Source: a virus
Taxonomy: Duplodnaviria > Caudoviricetes
IMG/VR virus record: IMGVR_UViG_3300030372_002240
Coordinates: 1 to 28,784 of that record
Strand: one strand, 5' to 3'
Length of the DNA: 28,784 bases
Within the stretch, counting starts at the first letter, position 1. Every line of letters starts with the position of its first letter. Made by a program: the position numbers and the translations under genes. Positions 4,954 to 14,451 of this stretch are shown one piece after another. The notes beneath the pieces were generated by a model that made no database searches, had not been told where the DNA came from, and saw only the letters and a program-made list of their open reading frames with translations.

Positions 4954-5349
4954 TTAATTATTATTTCTTTTAAATGATTCGCTTTCATCTTCACCAAAAA
5001 CACCAAGCTCGTAAAAACCTGCTAATTTTAAAACTGCTCTTGACATGGCTCTTTTCTCAGCCATTTCCATAACATACCAACTGTTAGTATTACCGTCTTT
5101 AAATGTATTACCTTTTAAAGCACTACCAAATGTTTGGATTGTTTTTTCACCCACATTAGCATTTGCTTTTACTACTGCAAAATGTGGTTCACATTTAATA
5201 ACGTCATAGACAATACTAATATCTATATTGGCTTGTATTTTATCAATACCTGCTCTTGTTATTATAGTATAATGTTGATGTTTAAAAACATCTTCCTCTG
5301 TTAAATTATTCTCTACAAATAATCTATTTAATATATCTCTTTTATTCAT
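4954..5349 (-). CDS. Putative single-strand annealing protein (Rad52/Sak-like)
   Basis: MAEKRAMSRAVLKLAG...GEDE motif; adjacent to SSB. Confidence 0.55.
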   Translation of the reverse strand: MNKRDILNRLFVENNLTEEDVFKHQHYTIITRAGIDKIQANIDISIVYDVIKCEPHFAVVKANANVGEKTIQTFGSALKGNTFKDGNTNSWYVMEMAEKRAMSRAVLKLAGFYELGVFGEDESESFKRNNN

Positions 5350-5557
5350 CAGTATTATTATTAGTTAAAAATTCACTTAACTTTATATTAAGTATTACAC
5401 ATAATTTTTCGGCTTCACTTATCTTTAGTGTGCCAGGATTCTTTAGTTTATTGAGCATTGTAGGATAACTCATTTCCATATACTCGGACAACTCTAATTT
5501 GGTTAAGCTATTCTCATACATAGCATAACCTATAATCCTTTTTAGTTTTTCATTCAT
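5342..5557 (-). CDS. HTH (Cro/Xre-like) transcriptional regulator
   Basis: LTKLELSEYMEMSYPTMLNKLKNPG.LKISEA.KLC..L; first gene after divergent promoters. Confidence 0.75.
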   Translation of the reverse strand: MNEKLKRIIGYAMYENSLTKLELSEYMEMSYPTMLNKLKNPGTLKISEAEKLCVILNIKLSEFLTNNNTDE

Positions 5558-5581
5558 AGTAAAATTATTATAATTAAAGGC

Positions 5582-5612
5582 GCAATATAAATAATTTTTT
5601 ATATAAAAACAA
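5582..5612 (-). promoter_or_regulatory. Putative Bacteroidota-type promoter (leftward)
   Basis: TTG (5612-5610), 20-nt spacer, TATATTGC (5589-5582), a variant of TAnnTTTG; palindrome TTTTTATATAAAAA lies in the spacer. Confidence 0.5.
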
Positions 5613-5627
5613 TTTAATACGAATTAC

Positions 5628-5652
5628 TTATTAACAATACAAATGTTAATAA
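5628..5652. repeat. Perfect inverted repeat TTATTAACA-N7-TGTTAATAA (operator or DnaA-box-like pair)
   Basis: Read directly, centred between the divergent promoters. Confidence 0.55.
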
Positions 5653-5681
5653 CTTATAAAGATTTTTTTACATTTATTTAC

Positions 5682-5709
5682 TTTGTATATAAAATTTTCT
5701 TTATATTTG
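5682..5709 (+). promoter_or_regulatory. Putative Bacteroidota-type promoter (rightward)
   Basis: TATATTTG (5702-5709) matches TAnnTTTG; TTTG at 5682-5685, though the 16-nt spacer is short. Confidence 0.55.
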
Positions 5710-5788
5710 TTTATAATTAACGACGAGGTTAATAAACAAGATTGAGAAATTAACTAAGTCACAAACAAAAATTTAAAAGAATATAAAA

Positions 5789-5998
5789 ATGTCAAAATTA
5801 AAAGAATTATATAAATTATTTACAAGCGACCAAGTGGAAAGAATCTACTTTTGTAAATTTGAACTGGGTTATAAAAGAACAATTCATTCTGTAACACCTT
5901 ATTCAGTAACATTTAGTGAATTAGAAGATTATTTAAAACATGAATGTTCTCTTATTGAAGTTGTTTTAAAAGATGAGAAAATAAGCCGGGTCTTTTAA
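5789..5998 (+). CDS. Hypothetical early protein
   Basis: 69 aa, first ORF after rightward promoter, A-rich leader. Confidence 0.7.
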   Translation: MSKLKELYKLFTSDQVERIYFCKFELGYKRTIHSVTPYSVTFSELEDYLKHECSLIEVVLKDEKISRVF

Positions 5999-6046
5999 TT
6001 TAGAAAATAAATAACAAACAGAAATACTAATTTAAAGAATATAAAA

Positions 6047-6181
6047 ATGAAAGAAAAAATGCTAGACCACATATATGAATTATTTGTCTTAGCTGACAAT
6101 ATAAAAGATTCTAAAGAACGTACTGAATACATTACTAAGCTAGGTGATGTTGAATATATTGTTAAACAAATAAATAAATAG
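6047..6181 (+). CDS. Hypothetical early protein, 44 aa (not in ORF track)
   Basis: MKEKMLDHIYELFVLADNIKDSKERTEYITKLGDVEYIVKQINK; same AAAGAATATAAAA leader as the 5789 gene. Confidence 0.7.
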   Translation: MKEKMLDHIYELFVLADNIKDSKERTEYITKLGDVEYIVKQINK

Positions 6182-6183
6182 AT

Positions 6184-6264
6184 ATGAAAACAAGGATATT
6201 TTTAACAATAGCTACAAGCTATTTTATAGGCAGGTTTTTAATCACACTAATTTTTAATATATGA
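6184..6264 (+). CDS. Small hydrophobic peptide, 26 aa (not in ORF track)
   Basis: MKTRIFLTIATSYFIGRFLITLIFNI; ATGA overlap with next gene. Confidence 0.55.
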   Translation: MKTRIFLTIATSYFIGRFLITLIFNI

Positions 6265-6470
6265 ACAAGTATTTAATACACGGCAAAGGTTATTGGAATG
6301 TACAGCTCAATGATCCGTTTATATCGGGAGTAGAAACAACTGATATAGAATCAAGCTACAATTATATCAAATTTAAAGGCACAGAAAAACAATTAGACAG
6401 CTTTTTAGACCAATTAATAGATCAAGGTGAAGCTGCATTTAAAATAATAGGAATCCATACAATAGATTAA
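6261..6470 (+). CDS. Hypothetical early protein
   Basis: 69 aa ORF within plus-strand operon. Confidence 0.7.
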   Translation: MNKYLIHGKGYWNVQLNDPFISGVETTDIESSYNYIKFKGTEKQLDSFLDQLIDQGEAAFKIIGIHTID

Positions 6471-6472
6471 TT

Positions 6473-6688
6473 ATGAAAAAAGGAACACAAAAACACACAT
6501 TATATAACTACCTAAAAGAAGGTAAAACAATATCAACATTTAATGCTATGTACGATCTCGGGATTGCAGATTTGCAAGGAGTAATCAGACAACTTAAAGA
6601 CATAGGAGTAAATATCCAATCTAAATACATTACTGTAAACACTAGATATGGCAATACAGCAACTGTAAAGTCGTATTGGTTAGAATAG
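6473..6688 (+). CDS. Winged HTH protein (HTH_39-like)
   Basis: L..GKTIS...A...LGI..L...I..LK..G.NI...V..Y.L pattern. Confidence 0.75.
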   Translation: MKKGTQKHTLYNYLKEGKTISTFNAMYDLGIADLQGVIRQLKDIGVNIQSKYITVNTRYGNTATVKSYWLE

Positions 6689-6755
6689 AAAAGCACCCGC
6701 ATTGAACACATTTTACAGGATAAGGAGAATTCCCTGTTACGGGTGCAATTCTATT
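6684..6755 (-). terminator. Nested stem-loop at the convergent junction; probable terminator
   Basis: GCACCCG (6693-6699)/CGGGTGC (6740-6746), outer AATAGAA/TTCTATT, inner ACAGG/CCTGT; U-rich tail on minus strand. Confidence 0.55.
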
Positions 6756-6888
6756 TTAAATTCTTTAATATGATATTAAAGTGTCTGCGTAACTTTTTTA
6801 AGTTATATACTCTATTATGGTTTTTATCATAAGTATATTCAGCATCTAGTTTAATATCTTTTGCGTATATGTGACTATTTTCACTCAT
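6751..6888 (-). CDS. Hypothetical protein, 45 aa (not in ORF track)
   Basis: MSENSHIYAKDIKLDAEYTYDKNHNRVYNLKKLRRHFNIILKNLK; ATGA overlap with phosphoesterase stop. Confidence 0.6.
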   Translation of the reverse strand: MSENSHIYAKDIKLDAEYTYDKNHNRVYNLKKLRRHFNIILKNLK

Positions 6889-7628
6889 AATTCCATTAGT
6901 AAATTTATAGGTATTTTTCCATTATTCAAAATAACAGCACAGCCAATTGCGGGTTTTTTTCCCGCTTTAGCGTATGCAAAGCTATATTTTGAAAAGTTTA
7001 TTCCTGATCCTATTTGACAGCCAAAGATTCTAAAATTTTGACCTACATAGTGTTCTGTATATGCTTGGGTGTGTAAATGCCCCTGTACAGTATTCATCAT
7101 ATCTGCTCTACATTTTGTTCTAGCTGTACCCCCTTCACCGTGTAAATACTGAACACCGTCCTTAACATATCTTTCTACAAAATTCCAACCTGGCACTTCT
7201 AGCACTTCTTTATAGCTTTTAATCCATTTACTTGGTATAGCTGATGTTTGACTCTTTCTCATCACCATTCGGTCATGGTTGCCAATGATTACAGTTGCTT
7301 TAGGGAACGCTTTGTACCAACGTGATATTCTTTTTATTGCTAGATCTAATTCATCTGATCCTGTCATTAATTCATTACCACCGTATGTCTCGTGATATGA
7401 AGAATAGTGGTTATCAATAATATCACCAATAAACACCACTTCTGTACATTCAAATTCGTCATATTTGGATATACAAAATTCTAGGTATTTATCAAGTGAA
7501 AATGGTTCGTGAAGGTCACCAATAACAAGGACGTTATTAAGACCGTTGCCTTCAGATTGGCGTATATTTTTTATTAAGTCGTGTTCTGACTTTGTTAAGC
7601 GTAACCGATATTCTTTGAGTTGTTTTAT
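6885..7628 (-). CDS. Calcineurin-like metallophosphoesterase; true start upstream of 7439, probably ATA at 7628
   Basis: VLVIGDLHEPF, GDIID, GNHD, HG and GHLH motifs; motif I lies upstream of the first in-frame GTG. Confidence 0.8.
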   Translation of the reverse strand: MKQLKEYRLRLTKSEHDLIKNIRQSEGNGLNNVLVIGDLHEPFSLDKYLEFCISKYDEFECTEVVFIGDIIDNHYSSYHETYGGNELMTGSDELDLAIKRISRWYKAFPKATVIIGNHDRMVMRKSQTSAIPSKWIKSYKEVLEVPGWNFVERYVKDGVQYLHGEGGTARTKCRADMMNTVQGHLHTQAYTEHYVGQNFRIFGCQIGSGINFSKYSFAYAKAGKKPAIGCAVILNNGKIPINLLMEL

Positions 7629-8008
7629 TTCTTTTTAATTTTTTCTATACTTCGTCCTGCAAAATATGCAGAATATACAACCATCATTAGTGTTTGATAG
7701 ACAGGTACATAAATAGGATTCATTTTGAAACTGCCTACGTTACCATCAAAAAAAGATATTATTACAAATATCATAGTTAAAAAAGCTAAAGTTAATGGTC
7801 TAATATTAGCAGGTAACCACCCCGCTTTGCTATCAGCTTCCCACCTTCTCGTAACTTGTTCTTGTGCTTTACTTTCAGCATCAGCTAAAAGTTGTTTAAA
7901 TTTAAGTTTTATTTCCTTCTTTTCTACAGGACTTGTGTGTAAGGTATCAACAATGTTATTAACATCTTTTAACACGCTACCACTTAGTATTTTGCCTATT
8001 ACACTCAT
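7625..8008 (-). CDS. Holin (3TM/GTA-type family)
   Basis: RWEAD....W...NIRPL, hydrophobic helices, YFAGRSIEK; follows endolysin. Confidence 0.8.
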   Translation of the reverse strand: MSVIGKILSGSVLKDVNNIVDTLHTSPVEKKEIKLKFKQLLADAESKAQEQVTRRWEADSKAGWLPANIRPLTLAFLTMIFVIISFFDGNVGSFKMNPIYVPVYQTLMMVVYSAYFAGRSIEKIKKK

Positions 8009-8502
8009 ATACTATTATAATGTTTTTTAGCTCTGTATTTAGTCCTGTTGTTTTCGTCTTTATAAGCAACTAGAACTTGTTTTCTATTTCCTGTTATCTT
8101 CCAACTTATATGAATCCAATCAGGATTGTCACTATCTGTATGTGCTGTAGAACCACCAAATTCTAATATACATTGGTCAAAATCCAACCCTTGACTTATA
8201 ATAGCATTAAAGATTCTCATATTGTCCATACGTCCACGCTTAACAAACTGTAAGTCCACAGCCTCGCATTTAGTGTGCTGAGATTTATTAGAACCACCTA
8301 TTGCTGCGTTGAGACTTTCAGACCTAAAGCCACTTGTAACTCTTAATGGACCAACTGCATTCCTGAGAGGTTGTAAAAGTTCAGCGGCTAAAAGTCTGAG
8401 TTTGTGTATTCCTTCCTTGTCGGGTGTGTTAGAAATACCAAGTCTTGTAGCTGTATTGCTTTTAGTAAGTTCTGCTAATGTGAAATTTTTGCTTATTCTC
8501 AT
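8005..8502 (-). CDS. Endolysin, peptidase M15 family
   Basis: NFTL.EL..S.TA...GI.N.P, VTSGFR, SQH...EAVD, WIHISW zinc-peptidase motifs. Confidence 0.88.
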   Translation of the reverse strand: MRISKNFTLAELTKSNTATRLGISNTPDKEGIHKLRLLAAELLQPLRNAVGPLRVTSGFRSESLNAAIGGSNKSQHTKCEAVDLQFVKRGRMDNMRIFNAIISQGLDFDQCILEFGGSTAHTDSDNPDWIHISWKITGNRKQVLVAYKDENNRTKYRAKKHYNSI

Positions 8503-8891
8503 TATTCAAATTTTGCTAACATCAAATTGTCTATGCTTTTTTGCACGTCCTTTTTTGTTGCGTTTAGTTGAAACATAATGTTTGCCTTAAACCTGTCCTT
8601 TTCTTCGCCACTTTCAAATATAATAACTGTAGGTATACAAGTTACATTATACTTCTTTTGTATGCTTGGAAAACGTCCTATATCAACTCTATACTTTTCA
8701 CAGTCATTCAATTTAGTAATTTCTGCAAATTGATTAGACTCATTCCAACCAACCCAAAACTCTACAGCAACAATATCTTTTGCAATTTTATCTTCAAAGT
8801 TAGACTCAGTAATAAAGTCTTGACCACTAGCTACCCCTATTATAAAAAATAAGATAGTAATTAAGATATAAATTAAATCTGTAAAGCTCAT
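8502..8891 (-). CDS. Exported thioredoxin-fold protein lacking CXXC
   Basis: Signal peptide; ITESNFE...VAVEFWVGWN...RVDI...KYNVTCIPTVIIFESG thioredoxin pattern. Confidence 0.75.
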   Translation of the reverse strand: MSFTDLIYILITILFFIIGVASGQDFITESNFEDKIAKDIVAVEFWVGWNESNQFAEITKLNDCEKYRVDIGRFPSIQKKYNVTCIPTVIIFESGEEKDRFKANIMFQLNATKKDVQKSIDNLMLAKFE

Positions 8892-9169
8892 TGCATTTTA
8901 TCTATTTTATCTCTAAGGTATTTGATGTCCTCTTTTATTTCTGTAACGTCCTCTTGCGTTGTCATTATAGTGGCACGTATCATTTGGTCCTTCATGTCAA
9001 ACTCCAACTTAGTAACTTCAGGTTCAGGTGGCAACGGCAATAGCTTTGCTTCATCTATAGAAGCATTAAGGCTAAACCACATACCTACTAGCGTTGCTAT
9101 TAAAACACCTATACCGCCTAAGGTTTTTAGGCTTATTTCAAACTTAGAATCTTCTGAAAGCTCTTTCAT
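8888..9169 (-). CDS. Single-TM protein with C-terminal coiled coil
   Basis: Hydrophobic GGIGVLIATLVGMWF, Pro-rich linker, heptad pattern VTEIKEDIKYLRDKID. Confidence 0.7.
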   Translation of the reverse strand: MKELSEDSKFEISLKTLGGIGVLIATLVGMWFSLNASIDEAKLLPLPPEPEVTKLEFDMKDQMIRATIMTTQEDVTEIKEDIKYLRDKIDKMQ

Positions 9170-9402
9170 TATTTACAAGATTTATCACATTTTTTACCTG
9201 AAAACTTTTCTACTCCACTAATTCCAAAACACCCCAACACAACCCAAACGAATGAATCATAAACAAATTCATTAATTACTAAGTCTTTTCCAATCCAGCC
9301 TGTAAGTAAATCAGCTATCATTATTATACACATTATTATAAAAGCAACAAAACCGATTATTGCCTTTTCATTCCAATTGTTATCGTCTTTAAATATATTC
9401 AT
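9169..9402 (-). CDS. Two-TM membrane protein (holin-like topology)
   Basis: Two hydrophobic helices, basic C-terminus KKCDKSCK. Confidence 0.7.
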   Translation of the reverse strand: MNIFKDDNNWNEKAIIGFVAFIIMCIIMIADLLTGWIGKDLVINEFVYDSFVWVVLGCFGISGVEKFSGKKCDKSCK

Positions 9403-9545
9403 ATACTATCAATTTTTATTTTATCAGCAAAGGGGACATCTTCGTTTTGATCTAAATCTTCTTTGCAATCGTTATTATGTGAACCGTCACAATTTCCATT
9501 GGGTTCTTTTGTTTTGCCACATATACATTTTTTTTCAAGTTCCAT
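9399..9545 (-). CDS. CDGSH-type iron-sulfur microprotein, 48 aa (not in ORF track)
   Basis: MELEKKCICGKTKEPNGNCDGSHNNDC...; start/stop overlaps with both neighbours. Confidence 0.75.
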   Translation of the reverse strand: MELEKKCICGKTKEPNGNCDGSHNNDCKEDLDQNEDVPFADKIKIDSI

Positions 9546-10096
9546 TAGTTATTTATATATTTAACTTGACCATTTTCTATATATATACTTTCAGGTTTTC
9601 TAATATGTTGACCATTAAGGTTATACATTAAACCTGTATTCTTTGATTTATCTAACACTTCATCAATCCCTGTATTACAAGGCAATCCCGTTACGCAATC
9701 AATATATTCTTGAGTAAATATTTCAATGTATTCTGTTTCTATTATAGTGTCATAAATAATAACATCTACGTATTCAATAACTGTTTCGTAAATGTATTCT
9801 ATTTCATATATGGTGTCACATTCTTGAGGGGGTGGTCCGCATTCTTCAGCTAGTGTCGGTACAGCATCTGCTTCGTCTGATCCATCTACGCAATCGTCCC
9901 AACCATCATTAAGATAAAACAAACCACCTTCACCATTTGGCACACAGCCATTCGGAGCATATTGAGTCCAATTAGCGGGGTCATCACCACAGAAAAATCC
10001 ATTTTGTTCTACGCAATCTAAGCATAGTTGTTGAAAGTCATATCCTTGACCAAACGAAAATGATGTTATAAATAGTAATGTAATTAGTCTGTTCAT
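9545..10096 (-). CDS. Secreted Cys-rich acidic protein with LDL-receptor-class-A-like motif and T9SS-CTD-like tail
   Basis: Signal peptide (..SFSFG/Q), NDGWDDCVDGSDE, tail TGIDE...MYNLNGQHI...IYIENG. Confidence 0.7.
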   Translation of the reverse strand: MNRLITLLFITSFSFGQGYDFQQLCLDCVEQNGFFCGDDPANWTQYAPNGCVPNGEGGLFYLNDGWDDCVDGSDEADAVPTLAEECGPPPQECDTIYEIEYIYETVIEYVDVIIYDTIIETEYIEIFTQEYIDCVTGLPCNTGIDEVLDKSKNTGLMYNLNGQHIRKPESIYIENGQVKYINN

Positions 10097-10098
10097 TG

Positions 10099-11109
10099 TT
10101 AAAATATTAAATAGTTAAATCCAAACTTGCATTCATATATTGGCTTTTCCCAATAGTTTAAATATGTACCCTCTACAAATAAACCTAAGTGCTTAGTAAC
10201 TCTTAGTCCTGCCACAATACCTGCATCAAGGTCTAATCCTGCTCCATCATACTCAAAACTATAGTCACTTAAACCATAGTGTAAAGGAATCAAATTTAGC
10301 CATGTATGAAGCCATGCGTTATTATGGTATTTATAATAAGCCACTCCAATAGCCATAGAAAGCTCATAGACGCTCCCTAAGGCGTTTAATTGCTCCGTGT
10401 TATAGTTTGCTATAGCTTGTCCAAAATAATGCTTGTAAAACTCATCATTTGACGTTGCTATTAATTCACCATTGTTAAACCAGTGCCAATTGCCATTGAC
10501 ATATTGCGTTGAATATCCAAAATCTTCTGCTAGATCGTTGAATGTGTTTTCACCACTTATCCAAAAATCCTCAATAGGTAGTATATGATAAACAGGGTGC
10601 TGACGAACCAAACCACCCACTGTGAAATCAAAGTTGCCTTTTTGTAGTCTATATCTTGTATCAAACGATATAAACTCCATATTACGTCTTTCATCATTTT
10701 TAAGTTGTATTTTAGTTACACATTTGTTCCCAAGGTATCTAAGCCAAAAATCTTGGTTAGTAAACTTGTCACCACGATTACGTATAAATGAATAATTAAA
10801 TAAATACTCCCAACCAATGCTATTACCAATAGTAACATTATCACTAACAGCTTTCTCAGTACCATAGTACCATGTCTTAACTTTATATTCATAATCAAAT
10901 CTTGCTATTTTTCTTAAACCAATGGTGAGGTTATAATCGTATGGATTAACTTTTGTAACATCTTCATACCCTTTGTCTACAGCTATATAGTTTTGGTTCT
11001 CGACCATACTTGTATTCATACTCATAGAAGTATAAAATGTAGCATACTTAAAAAAGTCACCTTGACTGAACCCTAAAAAGGGTAGTAATATTAATAGGTA
11101 TTTTATCAT
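10099..11109 (-). CDS. Putative outer-membrane beta-barrel protein
   Basis: Signal peptide (..LGFS/Q), alternating aromatic/hydrophobic strands, C-terminal KFGFNYLIF. Confidence 0.7.
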   Translation of the reverse strand: MIKYLLILLPFLGFSQGDFFKYATFYTSMSMNTSMVENQNYIAVDKGYEDVTKVNPYDYNLTIGLRKIARFDYEYKVKTWYYGTEKAVSDNVTIGNSIGWEYLFNYSFIRNRGDKFTNQDFWLRYLGNKCVTKIQLKNDERRNMEFISFDTRYRLQKGNFDFTVGGLVRQHPVYHILPIEDFWISGENTFNDLAEDFGYSTQYVNGNWHWFNNGELIATSNDEFYKHYFGQAIANYNTEQLNALGSVYELSMAIGVAYYKYHNNAWLHTWLNLIPLHYGLSDYSFEYDGAGLDLDAGIVAGLRVTKHLGLFVEGTYLNYWEKPIYECKFGFNYLIF

Positions 11110-11636
11110 AATACTTTAGTATAAGCGTAAGTACAATAAACATCACAGCTCCAACCACCATTAAACGCATTATTTGACCACATTTTGAATGATTTATTAA
11201 TTAGCGAACCTGCGTCAACACCCCCGCCTGGCTGGTCACCTGAAAATATATAACTTGCATCAGCACTTTTACCACCCATAAACCTAGAAGCGTAATCCCA
11301 TCGCAGAATGTCATTCGTGTCATCAAAACCGAAATAGATGTTGTTGTTAGAGGATTCTGTATTAGATGCGTAAGTACATAAAACCGTAACACTTATGGGC
11401 ATAACCATATAACCACTCAAAGCACCTACTAAAACTTTTGATGTAGTATTTAACGCCTGTACTTGTGCATTTGGTAGTGAGAATTTATCAGTTTGAATAA
11501 CATATTTGAAATCCATCTTTTTAGATGTACCTTCAGGTGATCCTGTAGTGTCGTTTACGTCCACTACCATTAATAAGTCGCCGCTACCTGCCTGTTGTTC
11601 GAGTGCGGTCTTGTCGGTTAGTCGTTGTCCTGCCAT
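11106..11636 (-). CDS. Putative virion structural protein (fibre/decoration-like)
   Basis: MA..RLTD..AL.....DLLMVVD N-terminus resembling virion appendage proteins; beta-rich body. Confidence 0.5.
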   Translation of the reverse strand: MAGQRLTDKTALEQQAGSGDLLMVVDVNDTTGSPEGTSKKMDFKYVIQTDKFSLPNAQVQALNTTSKVLVGALSGYMVMPISVTVLCTYASNTESSNNNIYFGFDDTNDILRWDYASRFMGGKSADASYIFSGDQPGGGVDAGSLINKSFKMWSNNAFNGGWSCDVYCTYAYTKVL

Positions 11637-11715
11637 TGTTTAATTTTTTAATATAATTTTTTAGCTTTTTAAAGTTTTCTAAGCTACTAGGATATGTCCT
11701 TCTTTTAACAGTCAT
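11584..11715 (-). CDS. Small basic protein, 43 aa (not in ORF track)
   Basis: MTVKRRTYPSSLENFKKLKNYIKKLN...; bridges gap between adaptor and next gene. Confidence 0.5.
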   Translation of the reverse strand: MTVKRRTYPSSLENFKKLKNYIKKLNNGRTTTNRQDRTRTTGR

Positions 11716-12297: not shown

Positions 12298-14451
12298 TTA
12301 TTTTACTCCTGGATAATGTCCTTGATTTGGCATATTCTCAGGTGCTATTACTGCATCTTTAATTCCTCTTGGTCTTGGTGTGTATGATTTAGGTATGCTG
12401 TCAGTCTTTTTATAATCGTTCATACTTTGACCATCTTTTAATTCTGTGCCTTCTTTTAATCTATATAGAATCACCTTCCAAGCGTGTCTGCAATATACGC
12501 CACCTTTAAATTTAAATAAATCGTAAGGCCGTCCCTTGTGTCCTAATTGCTTATTTACTCCTGCTCTACTAGCTGCATCAATATCTTCAATTCTATATAC
12601 AAAACCACCTTTTGATAGTCGCATCATATTCTTACAAAATGTTCTAGTAGATTTGCTTGGTTTTCTACTTTTCTTAATGTACTTAAATCTAACCCTATAA
12701 TATGACTTGTCTAAGTAACTAAACCTGTCCTCTTTGCTAACTATTTCGTCTGCAAATTTATCCTTTATGTCTTTAGGTTCTATAAAGCTATCCGCCCAAT
12801 CACAATAATCCTCTACATAATCTTGCTCATCTACAACTTCCCATTTGTCTAAATCTATTTGTTCGCCTTCTAGTGCATCAAATACATCATCAAATTCATC
12901 ATCAGATAAATCAGCTCTAACACCTTCTATTTCTTTAACTTTTTTTTTTGCCCAAGATTGTCCTGCATCACCACCCCATAAAGCCCAAGCAATTCTTCCT
13001 GCTGACGGGAATCCATCTTCACCTATTTCATAACCTTCTGCTTTTTTATCTACTTCGTGTCTAGCAAAAAAACTGTTCATTCTTTTAATTGTGTCTAAGC
13101 TAAGGTTGTCACCGTTCTTAATATTAGTAGCTCTAGCAACTGCAACTTGAGTGCCACCACGTCCATACTCTCTGCGCCATTCTAATCCTTTTATAGCTTC
13201 GTCAATCATTCCTTGCGTCGGTTTAGTGTCTATGTCTTGTAAGTCCTTAAATTCTTGCTTTAATTGATCTGTATTTATTTCCTCTTTTGTAACACCTTCT
13301 TTTTCTTGTTCTTCTTCTGATTGTGTCTTAGTAACTTCTAAATCAATGAAATCAGCAGGTTTAAGCGACTTAAAGTATAAATCAAGGTTTATGTCATTAA
13401 CTTTAAATATCTTCTCTAAACCCTTTAAAAGCGTGTTTTGGAACGGAATAACCACAGTATTTGTAAATAAACTAAAGGCATCACGTAATTCATCTGCATT
13501 ATTTCCAAGTCCACCACCTTCTGCTCTAATACCAAATAATATTGGTGACGTAACTCTATGTCCTGCCAAGATTTGATTTACAGCTTGTTTTGACATACCT
13601 TCCCAAGCTGACTGTGCATCATTCATTTGGATAGGTTCTATTATAGGTGCTGTTTCTTTTCCGTCATTGAAAGTGATTAGTATTTTACCTGCATTTCCAC
13701 TACCTGCAAATTTAGCGTTTAATTGACGTTCTATAGTACGGCGTTCTTCATCTGTAGGCACACCGTTAGAGAATCCAACGTGCATACTAGGAGTCATACC
13801 GCTAGTTATATTAGATAAATGAAATTGAGCTATTTCTAATTCCATTTGAATCCAATCCGTAGCAGCTACATAATCAGGAGCAAACCCATAAAATAAAGCA
13901 GGGTTTTTATCTCTAATCATTAAGATTTGACTAGCTTGTGTTCTATCGTCAGTATTGAAGGCTGCATAAGCACGTGGTCTGTATTCTTGTTTTTTAACTT
14001 TTGACCAATCAGCACTATAATAATATGTGTCTATTTCACCGTCAATCATTTTACCTGAACGTATATACTGAGCAGGTATATGTTTCATCTTAGCAATCCT
14101 TGACCTGTCTCGTGACCATATAACATTAACGTAACACCCACCAAATAGCTTTAAGTCCATAGCTAGGTCTTTTAGCACATCGTCATCTGAATTGTGTAAT
14201 AATTCTGTTAATCGTAAATATGATTCTTTTGTGTCTGTAGTTTCATCTGCATTTGTAGCAGCTAATCCTTCACCATAAATCATAGCACCTATAGACTTAA
14301 TCAAAGCACCATTAATAGCACTACCTAAGAATAGGTCTAGTAAGTAGTTCGGGTATAGATTATCTTTTCCAAAAGAAATCCAATCATTCTTAGAATCTTC
14401 TATTAAGTGTGGTATGTTGTAATGTGATAATTTTATTAAGTCTAATTTCAT
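12298..14451 (-). CDS. Portal protein fused to two extra C-terminal domains
   Basis: W..FG.DNLYP, DL..FGG, F.GSGNAGK, I..GHRVTSP.LFG portal motifs; then PSAGRIAWALWGG domain and FC..M...KGG.YCRH.W domain. Confidence 0.85.
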   Translation of the reverse strand: MKLDLIKLSHYNIPHLIEDSKNDWISFGKDNLYPNYLLDLFLGSAINGALIKSIGAMIYGEGLAATNADETTDTKESYLRLTELLHNSDDDVLKDLAMDLKLFGGCYVNVIWSRDRSRIAKMKHIPAQYIRSGKMIDGEIDTYYYSADWSKVKKQEYRPRAYAAFNTDDRTQASQILMIRDKNPALFYGFAPDYVAATDWIQMELEIAQFHLSNITSGMTPSMHVGFSNGVPTDEERRTIERQLNAKFAGSGNAGKILITFNDGKETAPIIEPIQMNDAQSAWEGMSKQAVNQILAGHRVTSPILFGIRAEGGGLGNNADELRDAFSLFTNTVVIPFQNTLLKGLEKIFKVNDINLDLYFKSLKPADFIDLEVTKTQSEEEQEKEGVTKEEINTDQLKQEFKDLQDIDTKPTQGMIDEAIKGLEWRREYGRGGTQVAVARATNIKNGDNLSLDTIKRMNSFFARHEVDKKAEGYEIGEDGFPSAGRIAWALWGGDAGQSWAKKKVKEIEGVRADLSDDEFDDVFDALEGEQIDLDKWEVVDEQDYVEDYCDWADSFIEPKDIKDKFADEIVSKEDRFSYLDKSYYRVRFKYIKKSRKPSKSTRTFCKNMMRLSKGGFVYRIEDIDAASRAGVNKQLGHKGRPYDLFKFKGGVYCRHAWKVILYRLKEGTELKDGQSMNDYKKTDSIPKSYTPRPRGIKDAVIAPENMPNQGHYPGVK

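Follow-up and report, generated by a model that had tools for sequence, protein, structure and literature searches.

A three-gene unit near the lysis genes of uncultured ocean phages encodes predicted envelope proteins

IMGVR_UViG_3300030372_002240 is a complete virus record in IMG/VR (completeness rating 100%), and its whole length of 28,784 nt is the stretch of DNA analysed here and referred to as the window. Family scans recognise its terminase, portal, protease, endolysin and holin genes, and the portal has its best match among cultured phages in Nonlabens phage P12024S/L (34% identity over 69% of the protein). Six genes run into the endolysin and holin genes, and encode a predicted outer-membrane barrel, an exported LDLa-like protein, a CDGSH-like microprotein, a protein with two transmembrane segments (2-TM), a protein with a single transmembrane segment (1-TM), and an exported protein with a thioredoxin fold (Table 1). 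An original prediction, made from the DNA alone, took these to be one six-gene system spanning the cell envelope. Here, we show that the core consists of three of them – those encoding the barrel, the 1-TM, putatively coiled-coil protein and the thioredoxin fold – which are inherited as one unit, with the other three as add-ons, and that this trio is widespread and undescribed in the literature searched.

The reading frames, their strand and positions, and their tight coupling are as first described. The barrel gene is followed after a 2-nt gap by the LDLa-like gene, the next four junctions are overlaps of 1, 4, 1 and 4 nt, and the thioredoxin gene overlaps the M15 endolysin gene by 1 nt, which in turn overlaps the holin gene by 4 nt. 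The six genes span positions 8502-11109, or 2,608 of 28,784 nt; this 9.1% agrees with the earlier estimate of about 9% of the genome. All six are under purifying selection, with dN/dS of 0.07-0.19 relative to 2-10 close relatives. A sequencing run presumed to be RNA contained a 1.6-kb contig from a relative, corresponding to positions 9896-11463, and was left out of the analysis. Because of the P12024S/L portal match and the signal peptides ending before Gln – for which PMC5837995 is a pointer to the Flavobacteriia – we infer that the host is a member of this class.

Three of the six genes are inherited together

Gene content was counted around four anchors – the barrel, the thioredoxin gene, a head-adaptor gene lying outside the module, and distant barrels – in sets that share contigs and are not independent. 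The barrel gave 122 relatives, of which the best 80 (62-97% identical) were kept, on contigs that reach 89 kb and whose flanking genes are unrelated. Among 80 thioredoxin loci, the 61 with 3.5 kb upstream all have the 1-TM gene adjoining the thioredoxin gene, with the barrel gene present in 56 and the LDLa-like gene in 53; four of the five loci with no barrel nearby have one elsewhere on the contig, and the fifth is a 42% fragment. The head-adaptor gene gave 80 loci, 40 of them with 4.3 kb downstream, and here the barrel, 1-TM and thioredoxin genes are either all present (37/40) or all absent (3/40). The add-ons are more variable at these 40 loci: the LDLa-like gene occurs in 26, a 2-TM gene of either of two families in 34, and the CDGSH-like gene in two.

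The distant anchor comprised barrels 36-65% identical to barrel P0129, again with 80 loci, 44 of which have 3 kb on each side. The 1-TM gene is present at 44/44 and the thioredoxin gene at 43/44, and the LDLa-like and CDGSH-like genes are each found once. The thioredoxin missing at locus L275 is probably a divergent one, and translating the corresponding gap at its twin locus L271 revealed a thioredoxin. The core is uninterrupted at 37/40 distinct distant loci, and two gene orders occur. Co-occurrence of these genes, in phages of 29 to 120 kb that are unrelated to one another, is much more frequent than chance would give. The proposal of a six-gene system is not supported, as only the trio is invariant.

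Within the trio, the pairwise divergences of the 1-TM and thioredoxin proteins are strongly correlated (rho 0.81 over 99 loci), although kinship inflates such values. Covariation over 184 trios reached an effective depth of 68 for 498 columns and gave no strand-pairing signal inside the barrel itself, and hence is uninformative. Complex prediction with four chains and the barrel as partner scored 0.00 in both runs, which weighs neither way on binding.

At 50% identity the barrel family falls into 320 clusters; its members come solely from virus records or from metagenome proteins without a name, and an estimated ~1,500 stretches in IMG/VR fit the barrel pattern. The 1-TM profile recovered 7,539 relatives among 8,000 candidates, and the nearest Atlas clusters of the thioredoxin protein are viral. 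The trio is absent from the 50,697 phage records searched. Cultured phages gave no match for the barrel, LDLa-like or 1-TM protein, and for the thioredoxin protein the only matches (31%) are two records that belong to a single ssRNA phage. No barrel was found in bacterial genomes by pattern scan, or in overlapping sets of 5, 401 and 401 genomes by an alignment that had no positive control there. The literature searched, which included few subscription journals, holds no description of the trio, and the supplementary spanin tables of PMC6139136 could list relatives. Hosts of the uncultured ocean phages carrying the trio are likely Bacteroidota. Some distant barrels (P0127, P0128 and P0154) have signal peptides that lack the Gln, and these phages may have hosts outside the Bacteroidota, such as Marinimicrobia.

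Table 1. Positions in the window of the six coupled genes and their neighbours
Feature	Positions	Strand	Remarks
176-aa gene, function unassigned (context)	11106..11636	-	precedes barrel
Barrel gene (core 1), 336 aa	10099..11109	-	predicted 12-stranded outer-membrane barrel
LDLa-like gene (add-on), 183 aa	9545..10096	-	exported protein with short tail of type IX secretion system type
CDGSH-like microprotein gene (rare add-on), 48 aa	9399..9545	-	motif and acidic tail
2-TM gene (add-on), 77 aa	9169..9402	-	hydropathy; holin/antiholin type likely
1-TM gene (core 2), 93 aa	8888..9169	-	predicted type II inner-membrane protein
Thioredoxin-fold gene (core 3), 129 aa	8502..8891	-	PF00085; no CxxC; exported
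Peptidase M15 endolysin (context)	8005..8502	-	PF08291 E 2e-16; phrog_894 endolysin
Holin, GTA_holin_3TM type (context)	7625..8008	-	phrog_3427 E 1e-21; PF11351 E 0.001, under cutoff

Predicted properties of the core proteins

The predicted locations of the trio products span the envelope, from the outer membrane through the periplasm to the inner membrane, as first proposed. The barrel protein has a signal peptide ending before Gln, a C-terminal Phe, a loop at residues 68-98 and a helical insert at 172-246, and its dN/dS is 0.07. It has no match in Pfam or PHROG scans. The outer-membrane barrel label is borne out by an AlphaFold2 model with 12 strands (pLDDT 73, falling below 50 in loop 71-96) and by fold matches to outer-membrane proteins, headed by Tsx (Z 13.6, root-mean-square deviation 3.8 over 187 residues), EstA (13.4), KdgM (13.0) and NanC (12.7) at 6-10% identity; none stands out among 12-stranded outer-membrane proteins, and the sole strong viral fold match is an unnamed protein. 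The phage barrel resembles known 12-stranded barrels (Tsx, NanC/KdgM, autotransporter barrels, COG4313/FapF, OMPLA, LpxR) in strand number and fold, with Z of 10-13.6, but shares only 6-12% identity with them and has its own insert and a long periplasmic loop.

Counting strands back from the C-terminal strand of the model, the insert is predicted to be extracellular and loop 68-98 periplasmic or lumenal. The loop is poorly modelled, yet R70, E74, K76, Y81, G83 and E85 within it are conserved, as are the lumen residues R124, K133, R152, R169 and H171. Loops resembling Dx[DN]xDG were read by eye in the insert of many distant barrels. The conserved R169-x-H171-P-x-Y174 at the outer mouth of the barrel, together with the presence of the 12-stranded enzymes OMPLA (Z 10.2) and LpxR (Z 11.0) among the fold matches, raises the question of whether the barrel is itself the effector, either as a lipid-cleaving enzyme of this kind or as a gated pore switched on by the periplasmic pair. 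We regard this as improbable: OMPLA and LpxR rank below Tsx, EstA and KdgM and are tied with many non-enzymes, H171 varies in three of 24 distant barrels, and there is no conserved His-Ser pair by comparison with the OMPLA catalytic motif. Three loci (L305:8764-9183, L315:7739-8167 and L334:8137-8565) encode, close to the trio, another small protein that is exported and weakly matches outer-membrane beta-barrels (E ~0.009 in two of the three).

The 1-TM protein has a short N-terminal tail with conserved E6 and K15, a helix at about residues 17-35 forming a single hydrophobic peak (Kyte-Doolittle 1.7) after K15, a hinge rich in Pro, and a C-terminal helix in which E56, K60 and R65 are conserved across 184 trios; the hinge and the helical pattern were read from alignments. 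It is predicted from these features to be a type II inner-membrane protein with the topology of an inner-membrane spanin subunit (i-spanin), its helices lying outside the inner membrane.

The exported thioredoxin fold of the original prediction is sustained by PF00085 (E 9e-7, 29.3 bits against a cutoff of 23.5). The protein keeps the conserved Pro87 and ends in Phe, and has F-W-x-x-W-N-x-x-N in place of the active-site CxxC. A CxxC, the active site of thioredoxin oxidoreductases, is present in only 1/121 near and 0/67 distant thioredoxin-like proteins. Gln follows the signal in 120/120, and 119 of 121 near proteins have one to four Cys residues, with none in several distant ones. The thioredoxin protein is predicted to be a periplasmic adaptor. 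There is a parallel in TraF and TrbC of the F plasmid, which are CxxC-less thioredoxin folds in an envelope-spanning machine (10.1101/2023.12.05.570194); these belong to type IV secretion, and no ATPase, pilin or other gene of such a system is linked to the trio.

These counts bear on two further readings, an iron- or redox-sensing module, which was one of three options first offered, and plain virion proteins. Sensing would fit the CDGSH-like motif with a Cys-rich head elsewhere in the cluster and the origin of CDGSH homologues from barrel-carrying phages in 5/5 records checked, but the trio lacks CxxC, the CDGSH-like gene is seldom present, and the CxxxC tail of the 2-TM protein is not conserved. 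The genes do adjoin structural genes, as virion genes might, but cleavable signal peptides and a membrane barrel are unlike parts of tailed virions, and the structural genes of the phages among which the trio moves are unrelated. Both readings are very improbable, and the sensing option falls on the near-absence of CxxC.

Add-on genes and neighbouring regions

The LDLa-like protein consists of a Cys/Asp-rich head, an acidic D-T-[IV] stalk of 14-174 aa and a 40-47-aa tail. The LDLa label stands as a resemblance only, with PF00057 scoring 13.7 bits in the window protein against a cutoff of 24.1, and reaching E<=0.05 in 16 of 72 family members (best 4e-4). The head is found in large chromosomal proteins at 11/12 bacterial loci, in metagenome-assembled genomes of Crocinitomicaceae, Flavobacteriales and Marinimicrobia, and several of these proteins end, as judged by eye, in an apparent long type-A C-terminal domain (CTD) of a type IX secretion system (T9SS). 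A signal peptide with a small residue and Gln at positions 10-36 was recognised by regular expression and by eye in 114/115 LDLa-like proteins. As to the T9SS tail of the original prediction, the motifs of short CTDs are present (B in 112/115, D in 105/115, where the window protein has S for G, likewise 15/105, and E in 91/115), but no curated CTD model in Pfam or NCBIfam matches any of 72 members. Fold searches with the model of the protein (predicted TM-score, pTM, 0.39) returned no match. Short type-A CTDs with motifs B, D and E are described in PMC11969387 for Prevotella intermedia only; the LDLa-like protein shares with these the signal peptide, a T/G-I-like cleavage motif and the three motifs, but its spacing from cleavage site to motif B is 12-13 aa in 92/96, compared to 6-11 in the described examples. 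Export by the host T9SS is likely.

The stalk is rich in D[ST][AILVMT], with 578 occurrences in 105 stalks against 65+-7 in shuffles, and this is an O-glycosylation motif of Bacteroidota (PMC10897501). We infer stalk glycosylation and go no further than that because D-T-[IV] is also the repeat unit. A different T9SS cargo regularly replacing the LDLa-like gene was considered and rejected, since the candidates – 680-aa genes after the thioredoxin gene in 60-kb phages – have no signal peptide; two exported proteins stand in its place only at L267 and L268.

These features bear on another of the original options, in which the barrel and a T9SS-type cargo would coat the cell, hiding the receptor or trapping phage DNA, with the periplasmic pair as anchor. 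Such surface masking or superinfection exclusion would suit the host-type head, the short-CTD motifs and the stalk rich in glycosylation motifs, as well as the position of the gene after the barrel in most near loci, and phage-encoded T9SS cargo has precedent (PMC7468147). The cargo is absent, however, from 43/44 distant and 11/37 close trio loci, the genes are coupled into the late operon with no excess of promoters over shuffles, a timing that suits exclusion poorly, the 12 strands of the barrel do not match the 14-stranded PorV type (PMC11969387), and the association with lysins is left unexplained. Masking is thus an unlikely function for the trio, for which it cannot account, and may apply to the LDLa-like add-on.

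The 2-TM gene of the window belongs to a family present at 15/40 loci; an unrelated 60-aa 2-TM family occurs at 19/40, and the gene is otherwise absent. The C-terminal CxxxC noted in the window is indeed there but is missing from several homologues. One homologue, 45% identical, lies directly before the endolysin and holin genes of Flavobacterium phage immuto, where none of the 11 genes checked around it is a trio gene; because of this arrangement the 2-TM protein is likely an ordinary lysis membrane protein of holin or antiholin type. A GldL/GldM-like motor was also considered and dropped, as the 2-TM gene is often missing.

The CDGSH-like microprotein has the motif C-x-C-x9-C-D-G-S-H with all four ligand positions, and nine residues between Cys2 and Cys3 compared to eight in the canonical spacing. 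The CDGSH label is a resemblance only, as the motif is present and Pfam has no hit at E<=5. Homologues were found at 12 loci in IMG/VR, six of them matching over most of the length; the association with barrel-carrying phages is loose. The dN/dS of 0.19 comes from two pairs only. Its acidic tail (window 9399-9440) resembles the tail of an SNase-like protein encoded in the same region of other phages (L061, L064). Across L094-L156 the region between the barrel and 1-TM genes is an insertion hot spot, occupied by SNase-like genes, a lipoprotein of 63 aa, and small basic proteins that have tags in common at the N- or C-terminus.

Beyond the cluster, the 176-aa gene overlapped by the barrel start (4 nt) is retained in relatives without the trio and missing from other lineages, and is part of this phage lineage rather than of the module. 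The 717-aa portal (window 12298-14451) has an internal domain at about residues 404-508 (phrog_2859) whose matches, at 50-67%, lie in the capsid or portal gene regions of phages of Roseobacter and Synechococcus. The start of a metallophosphoesterase gene (window 6885-7624) is uncertain, with called lengths of 49 to 289 aa among relatives. At 5342-6688 there are divergent small genes with helix-turn-helix-like proteins, read by eye; no integrase was seen there by eye, the family libraries having covered only reading frames from 6885 up. Promoter scans gave no excess over shuffles. The 11-mer TTTATATTTAT lies just upstream of four late-gene starts (window 15158, 17619, 18654 and 27401, minus strand), with five matches compared to 2.0 expected, a number also reached or exceeded in 10/100 shuffles.

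Association with lysis genes and a candidate function

The endolysin and holin labels of the genes next to the trio hold (Table 1). The distance from the core to an endolysin gene is at most 100 nt at 22/22 loci of the window's own lineage and at most 2.5 kb at 24/24 loci of other lineages, ten of which rely on DUF5675, which we take to be a lysin; an endolysin is recognised at 30/40 distant loci. The lysins beside the trio are of at least three unrelated types – M15, phrog_33083-like, and Amidase_2 with or without a peptidoglycan-binding domain – and the holins are GTA_holin_3TM, Phage_holin_4_1 or none recognised. Because the lysin families are unrelated, the link has been kept or re-made repeatedly. 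A role of the trio in lysis is probable.

No lipoprotein spanin is recognisable, in keeping with the original prediction: a regular expression found no reading frame with a lipobox on the coding strand at window 6700-11700, and a separate one near only 7/138 trio loci; the expression recovers 6/6 control rows after loosening and none before. Nor does any window reading frame combine a lipoprotein signal with a C-terminal transmembrane domain in one chain, as a unimolecular spanin would. The trio shares with two-component spanins (lambda Rz/Rz1, T4 PseT.3/PseT.2; PMC6139136) its position in the lysis cassette, a predicted type II protein whose alignments suggest the helix-linker-helix layout of Rz, and a predicted outer-membrane partner. 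It differs in having no lipoprotein, in an outer part that would be a 12-stranded barrel with an extracellular domain, in the addition of a soluble thioredoxin-fold protein, and in an inner-membrane part almost always devoid of Cys, which is present in 507/528 two-component spanins (PMC6139136). Sequence comparison with spanins gave no match, the best being Rz-like phrog_739 at E 0.23 with one homologue. Lacking the lipoprotein that defines spanins, the trio is not a member of this group, though it may work like one. In PMC6139136, 91/677 genomes have no spanin, the spanin-less list includes Bacteroides and Croceibacter phages, and an outer-membrane protein acting as the outer-membrane subunit (o-spanin) is named as an unexplored possibility (section 15).

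In relatives without the trio, the flanking genes are the same but enclose, at 24 loci, a hydrophobic peptide of 54-69 aa whose tail is amphipathic and basic. Twenty-two of these loci were mapped, and 16 cover the slot completely, with no trio gene in any of the 16; conversely, the peptide profile has no match in any trio locus, and the slot is never empty. The peptide has a net charge of 0 to +3, long hydrophobic stretches and no Pfam or PHROG name, and is a candidate holin, antiholin or disruptin-like protein (L190:4828-5004, L349-L370, L231, L238). Non-spanin lysis accessories of similar size are the phiKT gp28 disruptin (10.1101/515445) and LambdaSo Lcc6 (10.1101/2024.01.23.576932), from which the replacement peptide is set apart by that charge and hydrophobicity; both are single peptides, and the trio resembles neither. 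After the endolysin and holin genes of phage immuto (L371:5844-6507; gp187, gp186) come the gene of a helical 1-TM protein and, overlapping it, one whose product is hydrophobic at the C-terminus and has a signal end of the Gln type; these two may be a further spanin pair that is free of lipoprotein.

Of the options first offered, outer-membrane disruption or lysis timing is the one that fits best, as a lysis-linked device of three genes and not six. We tentatively favour a trans-envelope device that replaces the lipoprotein spanin, while giving it somewhat less than even chances. The barrel would be inserted in the outer membrane as the outer anchor, and the 1-TM protein would sit in the inner membrane as i-spanin with its helices outside. 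The thioredoxin fold would serve as an adaptor with no redox role, by which the coiled coil is connected to the conserved periplasmic loop of the barrel. After holin and endolysin had removed the peptidoglycan, the 1-TM helices would draw the two membranes towards each other or cause the barrel to open, and the outer membrane would be breached; the LDLa-like protein, the 2-TM protein and the CDGSH peptide would be optional passengers. The fuller proposal – a third class of spanin, widespread in ocean phages, made of three parts and free of lipoprotein, with a phage-made beta-barrel anchor and a redox-dead thioredoxin, in which the extracellular domain lets lysis respond to the outside – is a more doubtful one.

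Several observations weigh against the bridging device. A plain anchor would not need a conserved extracellular insert or conserved lumen residues. The 1-TM protein has only ~58 residues after its helix, and has no Cys in 111/114. Barrel divergence correlates weakly with that of the 1-TM or thioredoxin protein (rho 0.31-0.36, again inflated by kinship), and a 114-kb record, G009 (99% complete), has a barrel and no thioredoxin match. At 10/40 distant loci no endolysin is recognised within the fetched DNA, and at L277 the trio lies among head genes. The trio is also dispensable, in that a 99% complete relative (G004) lacks barrel and thioredoxin, and 16/16 trio-less loci have no lipoprotein, by the version of the pattern that missed its control. 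Three of these are the main difficulties: the outer domain and lumen are conserved, the 1-TM protein is short and free of Cys, and the trio is dispensable. A sensor of lysis timing fits them equally well.

Such a sensor would act in the manner of T4 lysis inhibition, which involves the holin T and the antiholins RI and RIII. What the outer domain of the barrel senses outside the cell would be calcium, a small ligand or a superinfecting virion, and the signal would pass through the periplasmic loop to the thioredoxin adaptor, the 1-TM protein and the holin. The conserved extracellular insert with its Dx[DN]xDG-like loops agrees with this, as do the conserved lumen and loop 68-98, the conserved E6 on the cytoplasmic side of the 1-TM protein, and the substitution of a small membrane peptide for the trio. 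The T4 system likewise has a single-pass inner-membrane protein and an exported periplasmic partner, made late, but it is not known to include an outer-membrane barrel, and no sequence similarity was found. P12024S, the closest cultured relative, encodes directly before its endolysin an unannotated protein (gp12; L246:8556-9194) with a transmembrane segment and a weak GAF match (E 0.009, under cutoff). The periplasmic domain of T4 holin T is of the GAF type, and the layout of gp12 is presumably alike; gp12 has no sequence match in the PDB, however, and no homologue in any other fetched locus. The sensor also has no known ligand, it leaves disruption of the outer membrane unexplained, and the trio persists beside unrelated holins, which a holin regulator must contact. 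We consider it a close, though doubtful, rival to the bridging device.

The trio is a concrete candidate for the means by which phages without spanins get through the outer membrane, and the relatives that carry the 54-69-aa peptide instead are natural controls. If the bridging device is real, it would represent a new way of opening the outer membrane of the host. If the trio is a sensor instead, it would form a phage-made signalling chain from outer membrane to holin, of which no description was found in the literature searched. In either case, the result bears on the lysis of marine Bacteroidota cells.

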